IMG/VR virus record: IMGVR_UViG_2534682252_000030
Reading direction: 5' to 3' (one strand)
DNA: 5,871 nt
Source of the DNA: a virus
Taxonomy: Duplodnaviria > Heunggongvirae > Uroviricota > Caudoviricetes
Shown piece after piece: positions 3,016 through 5,871 of this stretch; the stretch's first letter is position 1, and each line of letters begins with the position of its first letter. The notes beneath the pieces were generated by a model. The model did not search any database, was not told the DNA's origin, and was given only the letters and a program-made list of their open reading frames with translations. The translations under genes and the position numbers were made by a program.

Positions 3016-3049
3016 GTTCTCCCTTGCCTTACTCAAGGTCAGAAACACA

Positions 3050-3080
3050 AAACCCCGTTTGCGGCCAACAAACGGGGTTT
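3050..3080. terminator. Intrinsic terminator hairpin between the endolysin gene and the small membrane-protein ORFs (bidirectional in form)
   Basis: Perfect 12-bp stem AAACCCCGTTTG (3050-3061) / CAAACGGGGTTT (3069-3080) with loop CGGCCAA. T-rich tract follows on both strands. Confidence 0.7.
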
Positions 3081-3170
3081 TACTTTTATTCACTTAGTTT
3101 TTGCCAGTTCGCAGGATTTCGTGTTATCCGCCAGTGTGAGCAAACCGCATTTTTCAGCAAAATATTCTGC

Positions 3171-4102: not shown

Positions 4103-4306
4103 TTACTCCCCCCGCGCCGCCTTACGACGGTCCTCTCTGATTTTGAAATACAGGTTAGTCAGATACGTCAGCAGGCCAAACAGCAGACTCCCAGCACACC
4201 GATTGCCACCCACTGGACGGAGAGACTTTGTCCAGCAGCTGCAGTAACCAGTATCCCGTCCCACCGCTGACGTGGTGTATGACACACCTGTTGTGATTTT
4301 TTCCAT
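4103..4306 (-). pseudogene. S: Class II pinholin (S21 / EssD-like) gene carrying three apparent single-nucleotide deletions
   Basis: The annotated frame gives [16 protein letters not shown]...[28 protein letters not shown], with a holin-like N- and C-terminus but a scrambled middle. The holin-like middle appears in the other two frames: [14 protein letters not shown], then QWVAIGVLG. Frame switches fall near 4260-4267, 4215-4218 and 4190-4192, each in a G or C run. Confidence 0.7.
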
Positions 4307-4351: not shown

Positions 4352-4386
4352 AAAACAAAAAGCCGCCAGTGTCGCCCACTGACGGC
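4352..4386 (-). terminator. tR'-like intrinsic terminator upstream of the holin gene (site expected for Q-dependent antitermination)
   Basis: On the minus strand: 10-bp stem GCCGTCAGTG / CACTGGCGGC (one G-U pair), loop GGCGA, then TTTTTGTTTTCC. Lies 46 bp upstream of the holin ATG. Confidence 0.6.
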
Positions 4387-4464
4387 CAACGCCGGGAGCC
4401 GTGATTATGGCATTCAGGCTCTGCTAAAAATGCCAGATAACATTCCGGCTCCCCCCCCTGATTC

Positions 4465-4493
4465 AGGTTATAAATGACACAATATCTTGACAA
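4465..4493 (-). promoter_or_regulatory. Candidate late promoter (pR'-like): -35 TTGTCA, 17-bp spacer, -10 TAACCT on the minus strand
   Basis: Position is right relative to the tR'-like terminator and holin gene, and the -10 hexamer fits TAnnnT. The motif match is weak and no Q-binding site can be defined by eye. Confidence 0.25.
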
Positions 4494-4568
4494 CACCCAT
4501 CACTGTCTGTCAGAAAATGTACTGCCAGATATAAGTATCATGTGAAACCCAACTATCCTTCTTAGCCA

Positions 4569-4571
4569 GTA
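4569..4571. repeat. Target-site duplication GTA (left copy) of the IS3-family element
   Basis: GTA directly flanks both ends of the element (4569-4571 and 5645-5647). IS3-family elements make 3-bp duplications. Confidence 0.7.
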
Positions 4572-4596
4572 TGAACCGCCCCGGAAATCCTGGAGA
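4572..4596 (+). repeat. IS left inverted repeat (IRL)
   Basis: TGAACCGCCCCGGAAATCCTGGAGA; matches the reverse complement of the right end at 22/25 positions. Confidence 0.8.
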
Positions 4597-4625
4597 CTAA
4601 ACTCCCTGAGAAAGAGGTAAACAGG

Positions 4626-4952
4626 ATGACTAAAAATACTCGTTTTTCCCCCGAAGTCCGTCAGCGGGCGATTCGTATGGTTCTGGAAAGTCAGGATGAA
4701 TATGACTCACAGTGGGCGGCAATTTGTTCCATTGCCCCAAAGATTGGCTGTACGCCGGAGACTCTGCGTGTCTGGGTTCGCCAGCATGAGCGGGATACCG
4801 GGGGCGGTGATGGTGGGCTCACCAGCGCTGAACGTCAGCGTCTGAAAGAGCTGGAACGTGAAAATCGTGAACTGCGCCGCAGTAACGATATCCTTCGCCA
4901 GGCTTCCGCTTATTTTGCGAAGGCGGAGTTCGACCGCCTCTGGAAAAAATGA
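4626..4952 (+). CDS. IS3-family transposase OrfA (HTH / leucine-zipper DNA-binding component), 108 aa
   Basis: [22 protein letters not shown]...[34 protein letters not shown] is a typical IS629-group OrfA. SD-like GAGG upstream. Confidence 0.85.
4943..4949 (+). other. Candidate -1 programmed frameshift site (A-run) at the orfA/orfB overlap
   Basis: A6 run 4944-4949 directly before the orfA stop TGA (4950-4952), with orfB in the -1 frame starting ATGATG at 4949. IS3-family transposases are normally made as an OrfAB fusion by -1 frameshifting on an A-rich heptamer. Confidence 0.5.
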
Positions 4953-5602
4953 TGCCACTGCTGGATAAGCTGCGTGAGCAGTACGGGGTCGGACCGGTAT
5001 GCAGCGAACTGCATATTGCCCCGTCAACGTATTACCATTGTCAGCAACAGCGACATCATCCGGATAAACGCAGTGCCCGTGCGCAGCACGACGACTGGCT
5101 GAAGAGAGAGATACAGCGCGTATACGATGAAAATCATCAGGTGTACGGTGTGCGTAAAGTCTGGCGTCAGTTGTTACGGGAAGGAATCAGGGTGGCCAGA
5201 TGTACAGTGGCACGTCTCATGGCGGTTATGGGACTTGCCGGTGTTCTCCGGGGTAAATGGGCCCGTCGTCCGTCTGGCACCATCCATCACAGCGATAAAG
5301 GCTCTCAGTATGTGTCACTGGCCTATACGGAGCGACTAAAAGAAGCCGGATTACTGGCATCAACAGGGAGTACAGGCGACTCGTATGACAACGCGATGGC
5401 TGAGAGCATCAATGGTCTTTACAAAGCGGAGGTAATACACCGTAAGAGCTGGAAAAACCGTGCAGAAGTGGAACTGGCCACACTAACGTGGGTGGACTGG
5501 TATAACAATCGACGATTGCTGGGAAGGCTGGGCCATACTCCTCCGGCAGAAGCAGAAAAAGCTTATTATGCTTCCATCGGAAACGATGATCTGGCAGCCT
5601 GA
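4949..5602 (+). CDS. IS3-family transposase OrfB (DDE catalytic component) with an in-frame internal deletion of about 75-80 codons; probably catalytically dead
   Basis: 217 aa versus roughly 290 aa for IS3-family OrfB. Only about 11 residues separate GVLRGK from HHSDKGSQY (second catalytic Asp), where full-length proteins carry about 80 residues including the first Asp (D.TY motif). Downstream [15 protein letters not shown] block is intact. Junction near 5255-5260. Confidence 0.75.
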
Positions 5603-5619
5603 GTTCACAGATAAAACAC

Positions 5620-5644
5620 TCTCCAGGAAACCCGGGGCGGTTCA
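5620..5644 (-). repeat. IS right inverted repeat (IRR)
   Basis: Reverse complement reads TGAACCGCCCCGGGTTTCCTGGAGA. Confidence 0.8.
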
Positions 5645-5647
5645 GTA
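5645..5647. repeat. Target-site duplication GTA (right copy)
   Basis: Identical to 4569-4571, immediately abutting the IS end. Confidence 0.7.
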
Positions 5648-5682
5648 CTTCTCCGACGAAAGTCAGTACTGGCTGTTTTTTT
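5648..5682 (+). terminator. Intrinsic terminator hairpin split by the IS insertion (left stem arm is at 4564-4571 plus 5648-5649)
   Basis: With the IS and one GTA copy removed the site reads AGCCAGTACT tctccgacgaaagtc AGTACTGGCT GTTTTTTT: a perfect 10-bp stem and a T7 tract on the plus strand. Confidence 0.45.
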
Positions 5683-5683
5683 A

Positions 5684-5871
5684 TTATGCTGCCGGTGCAT
5701 TTATCTCCAGCATCAGACTTTCTATCTCAACGCCATACGCTGCATTTTTTGTAACATCCGTCAGCGTCAGCGCATTCAGTCCCAGTGTCAGACTGTCTTT
5801 TATAACCTGGAATGCCGGGCCAGCCACTCCATTCAGTTTCGGAGTAACCATGGCACTGCCGGCGGTGAACA
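5684..5871 (-). CDS. 3' end of a gene running off the right edge (61 C-terminal codons), product unknown; sits where lambdoid phages carry the late-gene activator
   Basis: Open minus-strand frame from the window edge to TAA at 5684-5686: ...AMVTPKLNGVAGPAFQVIKDSLTLGLNALTLTDVTKNAAYGVEIESLMLEINAPAA. Not in the ORF track because it has no start in the window. I do not recognise a family. Confidence 0.35.
   Translation of the reverse strand, partial: FTAGSAMVTPKLNGVAGPAFQVIKDSLTLGLNALTLTDVTKNAAYGVEIESLMLEINAPAA

Follow-up and report, generated by a model that had tools for sequence, protein, structure and literature searches.

An IS629 copy inside the terminator stem of a probable PasA/PasC-family sRNA gene in a lambdoid prophage

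The insertion site and its IS-free allele

The window, i.e. the whole stretch of 5,871 nucleotides that was analysed, contains an insertion sequence between the genes for a sialate O-acetylesterase and holin S (Table 1). The complete esterase comprises 616 amino acids with the Pfam domains DUF1737, SASA and DUF6645, and its gene converges on the sRNA gene discussed below. The frame of holin S is disturbed in the window by three 1-bp homopolymer deletions. The boundaries of the IS (1073 bp) were obtained by sequence reading and with a repeat finder, which returned terminal inverted repeats of 25 nt with 88% complementarity. These repeats start with TG...CA and are flanked by a 3-bp duplication, as is characteristic of IS629 and the IS3 family; for IS629, duplications of 3-4 bp have been reported (PMC3271280).

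Table 1. Positions of the genes, IS629 features and hairpin elements in the window
Feature	Position	Strand	Remarks
Class II holin S	4103-4306	-	first lysis gene downstream of the IS in late direction; frame disturbed
Late-strand terminator-like hairpin just upstream of holin S	4361-4387	-	context, outside the sRNA; homologous site annotated as terminator in phage 434
Conserved upstream box of the sRNA module, TTGACA-N10-CTGTCTGTCAGAAAAT	4487-4518	+	candidate promoter, by homology
sRNA gene (probable), 5' part, nt 1-50 of 85	4522-4571	+	homology to PasA; fused to the IS629 left end
Hairpin 5' arm	4564-4571 and 5648-5649	+	split by the IS
Target-site duplication GTA, left copy	4569-4571		single GTA in the IS-free allele
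IS629/IS1203 (IS3 family), internally deleted 1073-bp derivative	4572-5644	+	IRL 4572-4596, IRR 5620-5644
orfA	4626-4952	+	within the IS; HTH_Tnp_1
Frameshift pseudoknot	4907-5023	+	Rfam ALIL, 121.5 bits
orfB, truncated	4949-5602	+	within the IS; overlaps orfA
237-bp in-frame deletion junction	between 5257 and 5258	+	relative to the full-length 1310-bp copy in Sakai Sp14
Target-site duplication GTA, right copy	5645-5647		from sequence reading
sRNA gene (probable), 3' part, nt 51-85	5648-5682	+	homologous to the mapped PasA 3' end
Hairpin 3' arm	5665-5674	+	
T7 run	5676-5682	+	
SASA-family sialate O-acetylesterase gene (nanS-p type), 3' end	5684-5871	-	last 61 codons and stop; RefSeq annotation of identical DNA
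Stop codon of the minus-strand ORF	5684-5686	-	

After removal of the IS and one GTA copy, the plus strand reads TT-AGCCAGTACT-TCTCCGACGAAAGTC-AGTACTGGCT-G-TTTTTTT-A-TTA. The original prediction, which had placed the IS inside the stem of a hairpin, thus holds: IS629 interrupts the element AGCCAGTACT-15 nt-AGTACTGGCT-G-T7 and is located in its 5' arm. The reconstructed sequence folds into an 11-pair stem with a closing U.G pair and an inner GAC/GAAA/GTC hairpin (-18.7 to -19.5 kcal/mol, RNAfold). Inverted repeats of 10 bp without mismatch and with a loop length of 3-20 nt occurred at a rate of 0.066 per shuffle when the whole reconstructed window was subjected to 500 dinucleotide shuffles, only 25 of which had any. 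Hence, an inverted repeat that spans the excision joint is not a matter of chance.

A stable stem-loop followed by a U tract, i.e. the arrangement of an intrinsic terminator, is found on the plus strand of the IS-free allele. On the late strand the hairpin is followed by AAGAAGG and no U tract, so the terminator serves plus-strand transcripts only. The T7 run ends at 5682 and the stop codon starts at 5684, which places the terminator one base from the esterase stop codon. The proposal of an intrinsic terminator which is oriented against the late genes and abuts the stop of the upstream gene is in agreement with the sequence. Since a simple terminator scan accepts no loops outside 3-8 nt, it did not flag the hairpin, not even in the IS-free allele.

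The reconstructed junction of 474 nt was found uninterrupted and 100% identical in 8 complete E. coli genomes, among them O157:H7 PV15-279 and strains of O157:H16 and O2:H16. F3113 is an IS-free carrier as well. These IS-free alleles contain the hairpin that had been postulated from the interrupted copy. In PV15-279, the junction is embedded in the same prophage gene order, and the context matches wherever it was checked among the eight genomes. In late direction, the IS-free allele shows the order Q - 3 tRNAs - terB - DUF3927 - esterase - sRNA - S, and the distance from the end of Q, which is outside the window, to the hairpin is approximately 3.4 kb. Because Q is located that much further upstream, the idea that the IS separates the upstream gene from the late-promoter region had to be given up; Q, the tRNAs and the esterase gene are all situated upstream of the insertion site in late direction. 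Between the IS and holin S, the DNA contains the box upstream of the sRNA as well as a terminator-like hairpin of the late strand.

The IS629 copy, its form and its choice of site

Among 5,426 complete genomes, 285 carry the IS junction. In Sakai Sp14, IS629 (isoforms IS1203 and IS3411) sits at exactly the same junction as a full-length copy of 1310 bp. An insertion named 'IS.15, Sp14' was described in all strains of the A6 clonal complex, i.e. typical O157:H7, and is absent from A5 and A4, where the empty site is kept (Rump et al., 2011; PMC3271280). IS.15 lies in the same prophage as the window copy and has the 3-bp duplication, the 25-nt TG...CA repeats and the orfA/orfB -1 frameshift in common with it. 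Probably, the window junction is that of IS.15 in typical O157:H7 (A6).

The two overlapping reading frames together with the ALIL match indicate that orfA and orfB are joined by a programmed -1 frameshift, as in the IS3 family. Compared to full-length IS629, however, the window copy is without 237 bp of orfB, which correspond to the first part of the DDE/rve core. OrfB accordingly has 217 instead of 295 amino acids, and positions 2-59 of the Pfam rve profile are missing. The remaining match covers only profile positions 60-101 and stays with 29.2 bits below the cut-off of 32.6 bits, i.e. the DDE core is incomplete. As judged from its reading frames, the window IS is a transposase-defective derivative and not an autonomous member of the family.

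This 1.07-kb form is as likely to exist at the site as to be an assembly or consensus artefact, for example by mix-up with the copy in Sp4, in which case the true locus would carry the 1310-bp IS629. An artefact is suggested by the best 30 matches among complete RefSeq E. coli genomes, among which the deleted IS is absent at this site; they have the full-length IS here, align in two BLAST pieces and give a record approximately 241 bp longer. It was also absent at this site among the 8 listed contexts of the truncated OrfB. Furthermore, Sakai Sp4 has a deleted copy (annotated as IS1203/IS629) with which the window IS shares 100% identity, and compared with Sakai Sp14 the window shows six homopolymer indels of 1 bp each, by which holin S and other ORFs are broken. 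However, genes for this truncated OrfB occur in public assemblies at several unrelated loci, which implies that the deleted element moves or spreads by recombination between IS copies, so that a real conversion is possible as well. For either form of the IS, be it artefact or real, the point of insertion, the duplicated GTA and the split of the hairpin are the same.

It had also been suggested that the IS targeted, or was retained in, a structured site. As a general rule, such targeting is not supported. We rebuilt the empty sites of 24 other distinct IS629 insertions with duplications from IMG/VR contigs, and these were no more structured than 60-nt windows drawn at random from these contigs (mean -12.7 versus -12.2 kcal/mol, Mann-Whitney p = 0.39). 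Moreover, no IS629 target pattern was seen in the 25 bp on either side of 47 sites (Rump et al., PMC3271280). Both results also speak against the related assumption that transposases of IS629 or the IS3 family are drawn to hairpins or terminators and that the present site is a hot spot, which we regard as unlikely. This assumption can point to another IS3-family element of 1259 bp (TGTAGTGG...CCACTACA, duplication GCT), which is inserted in the 3' arm of the terminator of PasA, the sRNA discussed below, in IMG/VR contig 2522572021_000002. An IS629-like copy in a second module of this kind in L107 and the IS629 copy just upstream of the second module in Sp4 fit the same picture. But prophage non-coding gaps generally tolerate insertions, and the module is present in thousands of sampled copies.

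The hairpin as probable 3' end of a PasA/PasC-type sRNA gene

The hairpin with its U7 tract very probably represents the Rho-independent terminator of an approximately 85-nt sRNA gene of the PasA/PasC family, the members of which are known as EcOnc51/52 in EHEC. PasA is an 85-nt RNA encoded in the arrangement '> < >' between the esterase E2348C_0688 and the holin E2348C_0689, and EcOnc51/52 are its EHEC homologues (PMC8550237). In EPEC E2348/69, PasA was validated by Northern blot and RIL-seq (Pearl Mizrahi et al., 2021; PMC8550237). The same order, esterase-pasA-holin-lysozyme, was reported by Zhu, Shabalina and Storz (2026; bioRxiv 10.64898/2026.05.13.724894), who also described a 3' stem-loop plus poly-U for all Pas sRNAs, a PasA seed that overlaps the terminator stem, and a mature PasA 5' end that is suggested to come from processing. 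In O157:H7 Sakai, the prophage sRNAs EcOnc51 (Sp12) and EcOnc52 (Sp4) were crosslinked to Hfq (Tree et al., 2014; PMC4104026).

After removal of the IS, the 85-nt gene can be aligned unambiguously and shows 88% identity to the EcOnc51-type copy in Sakai Sp12, 82% to PasA of E2348/69 and 72% to PasC. The published PasA coordinates (PMC8550237 Table S6) map to CTGCC...GCTGGCTG-U7 and those of PasC to the copy abutting the esterase stop; in both cases the 3' coordinate falls on the last U of U7. When reverse-complemented, the PasA Northern probe GCCAGCACTGACTTTCGGTGGAGAG from the same table gives the loop and 3' arm of the homologous hairpin. In the window, the 5' part of the gene contains the variant-specific stretch GAAACCCAACTATCCTTCTTAGCCAGTA; its last 8 nt, AGCCAGTA (4564-4571), are the beginning of the 5' arm of the terminator. 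The 3' part consists of the last 2 nt of the 5' arm, the 15-nt loop with the inner GAC-GAAA-GTC, AGTACTGGCT, a single G and U7.

Like PasA and PasC, the gene belongs to a lambdoid prophage, where it is flanked by the SASA sialate esterase gene on one side and the holin-lysozyme genes on the other and runs antisense to them, which is true for the window and the IS-free allele. It shares with PasA and PasC the upstream box and the length of approximately 85 nt. The stem AGCCAG...CTGGCT followed by U7 and the PasA-type loop CUCC-NN-CGAAAGUCAG are common features as well, and with PasC it has in common that its terminator lies directly next to the stop codon of the esterase. The terminator stem typical of the family (11 pairs plus U7, -19.5 kcal/mol) exists only in the reconstructed or IS-free allele, whereas it is split in the window. 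By homology, the hairpin would be the Hfq-binding 3' end, and its 5' arm would include part of the seed. The seed-equivalent GCCAGUACUU matches the PasA seed GCCAGCACCU at 8 of 10 positions, and the IS cuts inside it, after GCCAGUA. Since the window gene has TACT/AGTA at the stem top instead of CAC/GTG and differs from PasA also in the seed, its targets could differ.

Compensatory changes accompany the conservation of stem pairing: in a comparison of 19 distinct family variants, 92.6% of the cells pair and 4 of the 10 pairs change on both sides. The covariation score was reached by none of 500 shuffles, and slid registers pair in only 22-54%. In Rfam, no family reached the gathering score at the hairpin in the window or the IS-free allele, and PasA/PasC appear to be absent from Rfam 15. 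The sole match in E-value mode, the terminator-like Bacillus ncr982 (E = 0.029, 28.5 bits versus a cut-off of 50 bits), was treated as chance.

The end of the upstream box is separated by 3 nt from the position that corresponds by homology to the reported 5' end of PasA. This box is found in the same way upstream of PasA and PasC in E2348/69, of the EcOnc51/52-type copies in Sakai and in the diverged second module, which makes it a candidate sRNA promoter. The conserved TTGACA box was not recognised in a consensus promoter scan of the window and the IS-free allele, and of the possible -10 elements even the best was poor.

EcOnc51 covers the PasA-type hairpin in Sp12 and EcOnc52 the hairpin of the second module beside the esterase stop in Sp4, i.e. 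both are paralogues from the same genome background. These copies are intact and were recovered Hfq-bound, whereas the Sp14-type copy of the window is split. In the Sakai Hfq-crosslinking list, sRNAs are given at the equivalent spots in Sp4 and Sp12, and the sole Sp14 entry lies elsewhere; the absence of an Hfq peak at the equivalent Sp14 position could be explained by multi-mapping or thresholds. PasA and PasC are expressed; the window variant is a putative further member and is interrupted by IS629 after nt 50. This IS-interrupted copy is not mentioned in the Pas papers PMC8550237 and Zhu et al. (2026), and we infer its link to the family from sequence. It is unlikely that the window allele corresponds to the terminator-less variant 'PasA-3' of Zhu et al., because according to its description PasA-3 does not differ from PasA and is confined to the ST32 complex.

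It seems very unlikely that the hairpin primarily acts on the late strand, i.e. that it stabilises the 3' end of the nanS-p mRNA or hinders its processing and was removed by the IS. The minus-strand RNA folds almost as well (-18.0 kcal/mol) and the hairpin begins 9 nt after the stop codon. But the A7/T7 run and the G.U-containing pairs fit the plus strand, the late strand is without a U tract, and the RNAs detected for the homologues are from the anti-late strand (PMC8550237, PMC4104026). The roles as sRNA terminator and on the late strand are not mutually exclusive.

There is even less reason to believe in a stand-alone terminator which insulates the esterase and late genes from stray antisense transcription and belongs to no functional RNA, because the approximately 50 nt upstream of the stem are conserved as well, the homologues yield discrete, Hfq-dependent RNAs of 80-85 nt, for which RIL-seq gave dozens of partners (PMC8550237), and are crosslinked to Hfq in Sakai (PMC4104026), and the 5' arm of the stem equals the reported seed (Zhu et al., 2026), although the textbook geometry on the plus strand next to a convergent gene and the phage 434 annotation as simply 'terminator' would fit it. 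In the phage 434 record (OL657226), the PasA-type and the esterase-abutting hairpins are both annotated on the anti-late strand, but labelled as terminators only and not as sRNA genes; the same feature corresponds to the 3' part of the sRNA gene in the window. Phage 434 contains two modules in tandem at a distance of 168 bp; in the window there is only one, fused module. Of the original reading, the genuine and conserved anti-late terminator remains; that it is free-standing does not, since by PasA/PasC homology it forms the 3' end of an sRNA gene.

Consequences of the insertion and their meaning

If the hairpin is the 3' end of an sRNA gene, the IS disrupts a gene. IS629 would have transposed into the 5' arm of the stem and thereby duplicated GTA. 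The gene would be split into nt 1-50, comprising body and 8 nt of the stem behind the upstream box, and nt 51-85 with the remaining hairpin and the U tract, which are now 1.07 kb apart. The 5' part would be without a terminator and half of the seed and presumably reads into IS629, sense to the transposase genes, while the 3' part would have no promoter of its own. Due to these losses, the sRNA paralogue in the window is most likely dead. Intact paralogues persist in other prophages. The Q-modified late transcription presumably still crosses the IS to the lysis genes. At the right junction, the terminal CA of the IS and the duplicated GTA form a 7-bp remnant stem, CAGTACT/AGTACTG, before GCTG-U7, so some termination could occur there.

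The sRNA family and the IS629 copy are both already known, hence the result is an annotation and not a new kind of element. An apparent orphan terminator would become the functional end of an already described prophage sRNA family that depends on Hfq, and an IS629 copy used for O157:H7 typing the knockout of one family paralogue. The counting of Pas/EcOnc copies is affected modestly, because BLAST-based censuses get a truncated match here. The observation bears on differences in the sRNA repertoire between O157:H7 lineages and on the assumption that the IS occupies inert spacer DNA. Our understanding of terminators, insertion sequences and phage late transcription is left unchanged.

In a far-reaching and rather improbable scenario, an old IS copy with externally driven transposase seeded the IS629 expansion in this lineage, and/or the loss of the PasA paralogue was selected, or the IS3 family has an affinity for this terminator; the latter comes into consideration since two different elements were found in the same stem. 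If the window copy is the A6 copy, it is one of only two IS629 copies common to all typical O157:H7. The upstream region of the sRNA points into IS629, sense to the transposase genes and 50 nt from the left end.

The split hairpin and the PasA family of sRNAs

The stretch covers the lysis region in a lambdoid prophage (Sakai Sp14 type) from E. coli O157:H7 (Table). The original prediction placed an IS inside the stem of a perfect hairpin terminator oriented against the late genes; this observation was confirmed, and the feature is genuine. Excision of the IS and one GTA yields AGCCAGTACT-TCTCCGACGAAAGTC-AGTACTGGCT-G-T7-A-TTA(stop) on the plus strand, which folds into a stem of 11 pairs enclosing a GAC/GAAA/GTC hairpin (about -19 kcal/mol); the expected count of perfect 10-bp short-loop inverted repeats in the whole reconstructed window is 0.066. 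Furthermore, the 474-nt empty-site sequence was found in one piece and with 100% identity in eight complete genomes, and around the IS-free allele of O157:H7 PV15-279 the neighbouring genes match those of the window, several of them with identical protein accessions. The U tract is present on the plus strand and missing on the late (minus) strand, hence the hairpin would terminate plus-strand transcripts only.

In EPEC E2348/69, PasA was described as an Hfq-dependent sRNA of 85 nt, encoded between esterase E2348C_0688 and holin E2348C_0689 in the orientation '> < >', with EcOnc51 and EcOnc52 as EHEC homologues (Pearl Mizrahi et al., PMC8550237, Table S6). The pasA locus shows the order esterase-pasA-holin-lysozyme, every Pas sRNA possesses a 3' stem-loop with poly-U, and the seed of PasA overlaps with the stem of the terminator (Zhu, Shabalina and Storz, bioRxiv 2026). 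The published PasA coordinates land on CTGCC...GAGCCAGCAC-CTCTCCACCGAAAGTCA-GTGCTGGCT-G-U7, and the PasA Northern probe GCCAGCACTGACTTTCGGTGGAGAG (PMC8550237) is the reverse complement of the homologous hairpin's loop and 3' arm. With the IS removed, the window gene shares 82% identity with PasA, 72% with PasC and 88% with the Sakai Sp12 copy beneath the Hfq-crosslinking cluster EcOnc51, and EcOnc52 overlies the paralogous hairpin beside the Sp4 esterase stop. As in the window, the terminator of the mapped PasC copy abuts the esterase stop codon. In the annotated phage 434 genome, the homologous hairpins are labelled anti-late terminators, and Rfam holds no model for PasA-family RNA. Both components, the PasA-family sRNA and the IS629 copy, have already been described; the sole addition is that this well-known IS629 copy probably represents a knockout of one PasA-family sRNA paralogue.

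The hairpin is conserved. A pattern scan of IMG/VR resulted in 120 contigs with 38 distinct sRNA variants, and 19 distinct variants of the hairpin were analyzed for covariation. For the ten proposed stem pairs, pairing was found in 92.6% of the cells, compared to only 22-54% in shifted stem registers. In four pairs both partners changed; at the stem top, for instance, C-G is replaced by U-A and G-C by A-U. None of 500 shuffles reached the covariation score. Many prophages (434, E2348/69 PP2, Sakai Sp4, Sp12) harbour two tandem modules 168 bp apart, each of which combines a box (TTGACA-N10-CTGTCTGT) with a terminator (AGCCAG...CTGGCT-T7); the minor PasA form (published length 236 nt) has its end at the second terminator. 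A single fused module is present in the window type and in PasC, and the window hairpin directly joins the sequence located behind the second module. This arrangement suggests that the shared CTGGCT-T7 may have been the site of an unequal crossover that produced the single module.

The 3' coding end of the esterase gene (about 5695-5730, minus strand) contains GAUAGAAAGU-CUGAUGCUGGA-GAUAAAUGCA, a motif listed among the PasA RIL-seq target sites for E2348C_0688, so that the mRNA of the convergent neighbour gene may be a pairing partner of the sRNA.

Table. Features of the window and of comparison sequences (L numbers)
Feature	Position	Strand	Remarks
SASA-family sialate esterase gene, 3' end	5871-5684	minus	616 aa complete
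sRNA gene without IS	4522-4571 + 5648-5682		85 nt
GTA flanks of IS629	4569-4571 and 5645-5647
IS629/IS1203, IS3 family	4572-5644		between esterase gene and S; 25-nt inverted repeats
Conserved upstream box TTGACA-N10-CTGTCTGTCAGAAAAT	4487-4518		kept by sRNA 5' part
Holin S	4306-4103	minus
YdfR-family ORF		minus	between holin S and lysozyme R in late order
Lysozyme R	3704-3171	minus
Rz/Rz1	2681-2214	minus
PerC-family regulator	1749-1435	minus
Small-terminase gene	734-459	minus	truncated by ISEc8
ISEc8 (IS66 family) end	1 to about 450		tnpA 3-404 on minus
Tandem-module loci	L004 2400-2700; L006 2340-2660; L245 500-790
IS3-family element, L080	1530-2990		1259 bp; ends TGTAGTGG...CCACTACA; 3-bp duplication GCT
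IS629 insertion, L107	about 5300-5450	reverse	just after second-module box

Effect and spread of the insertion

The IS entered after nt 50 of 85, within the 5' arm and seed-equivalent, between GCCAGUA and CUU. The 5' part of the sRNA, with its box kept and its terminator lost, would read into IS629 in the sense of orfA/orfB. In the 3' part a 7-bp remnant stem remains, because the lost arm is partly imitated by the terminal CA of the IS together with the duplicated GTA; 4 nt now separate this stem from the U tract. We infer that sRNA production from the window copy has ceased. In the Sakai Hfq list, Sp4 and Sp12 have entries at the corresponding positions, and the sole Sp14 entry is located elsewhere; as weak negative evidence, this agrees with the loss.

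The sRNA-IS junction occurs in 285 of 5,426 complete E. coli genomes. IS.15, the Sp14 IS629 copy, was reported from all O157:H7 strains of the A6 clonal complex; A5 and A4 strains lack it and still have the empty site (Rump et al., PMC3271280). The IS-free alleles found, for instance, in 493/89 and LSU61 fit this report, and IS.15 is probably the IS629 copy of the window.

Late promoter and choice of the insertion site

The late-promoter region, originally assumed next to the IS, is located elsewhere: in the late direction of the IS-free allele, the end of Q precedes the sRNA site by about 3.4 kb, and the interval contains three tRNA genes, terB, a gene for DUF3927, an STnc100/PasD-like RNA and the esterase gene. 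The STnc100 match (RF02076, 100.8 bits; L005 6274-6446, outside the window) is on the late strand just upstream of the esterase gene, which is thus bracketed by two sRNA genes; it corresponds to the PasD/STnc100-type RNA linked to the esterase locus by Zhu et al.

The assumption that the IS sought structured DNA finds no support as a general rule. Compared to random windows of the same contigs, 24 independent IS629 empty sites fold like background (-12.7 vs -12.2 kcal/mol, p = 0.39), and no target pattern was found for IS629 (Rump et al., PMC3271280). Targeting of this hairpin by IS629 or the IS3 family is rather improbable, even though the 3' arm of a PasA-type terminator stem in one IMG/VR contig (L080, IMGVR_UViG_2522572021_000002) carries a different IS3-family element, a second independent insertion in the same hairpin family, and two further IS629 copies occur elsewhere in the module (L107 and the deleted copy of the Sakai Sp4 locus, L001). 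These few cases stand against a dispensable intergenic module sampled in thousands of copies, and we read them as tolerance rather than targeting.

The IS629 copy and neighbouring features

The window IS629 (1073 bp) has overlapping orfA and orfB with an ALIL frameshift pseudoknot (121.5 bits). In orfB, 237 bp are deleted in frame (junction 5257/5258); the deletion removes rve profile positions 2-59, i.e. the first part of the rve/DDE core, which makes the transposase defective. All 30 best-matching complete genomes (30/30) carry the full 1310-bp IS at the same site. An identical deleted copy exists at a different locus, in Sakai Sp4, and the truncated OrfB is also encoded at several unrelated loci (abgT region, beside a phage integrase, a TraT-bearing contig); therefore, the defective element spreads or converts other copies. 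Either an imperfect source assembly explains its presence in the window, or a different IS copy converted this one by recombination; in both cases the split hairpin is the same.

In Sp4, the deleted IS629 (L001 5940-6000) lies about 25 nt upstream of the second-module box without target duplication. The block ylcI'-pchA-Rz-R-S-PasA-type sRNA (L001 6001-11300) is inverted relative to esterase and terminase, with breakpoints at the deleted IS629 and inside ylcI, of which about 105 bp are lost. This rearrangement is an IS-associated inversion plus deletion, which uncoupled the lysis genes from the late operon.

Compared to Sakai Sp14 and NCCP 13946, the window contains six 1-bp homopolymer indels (1449, 1559, 4088, 4190, 4215, 4260) affecting S, the YdfR-family ORF and the PerC-family gene. 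Three are in S, with two frame changes and a restored protein end, one is near the start of the YdfR-family ORF, and the two in the PerC-family gene compensate each other. They look like sequencing errors of an older or lower-quality assembly; real pseudogenisation is possible.

Minus-strand terminator-like hairpins at 4361-4387 (its counterpart is annotated as terminator in the phage 434 record) and 4432-4449, between the sRNA box and S, would be relevant only to non-Q-modified transcription. Symmetric A-run/stem/T-run hairpins resembling bidirectional terminators occur at 1372-1398 (AAAAAGCGAC-7-GTCGCTTTTT), between ylcI/ynfO (plus) and the PerC-family gene (minus), and at 3049-3081 (AAAACCCCGTTTG-7-CAAACGGGGTTTT), downstream of lysozyme R. 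The ISEc8 insertion leaves a 91-aa N-terminal fragment of the small terminase, and its junction is shared by Sakai Sp4 and the NCCP 13946 prophage of Sp14 type and is absent from Sakai Sp14.
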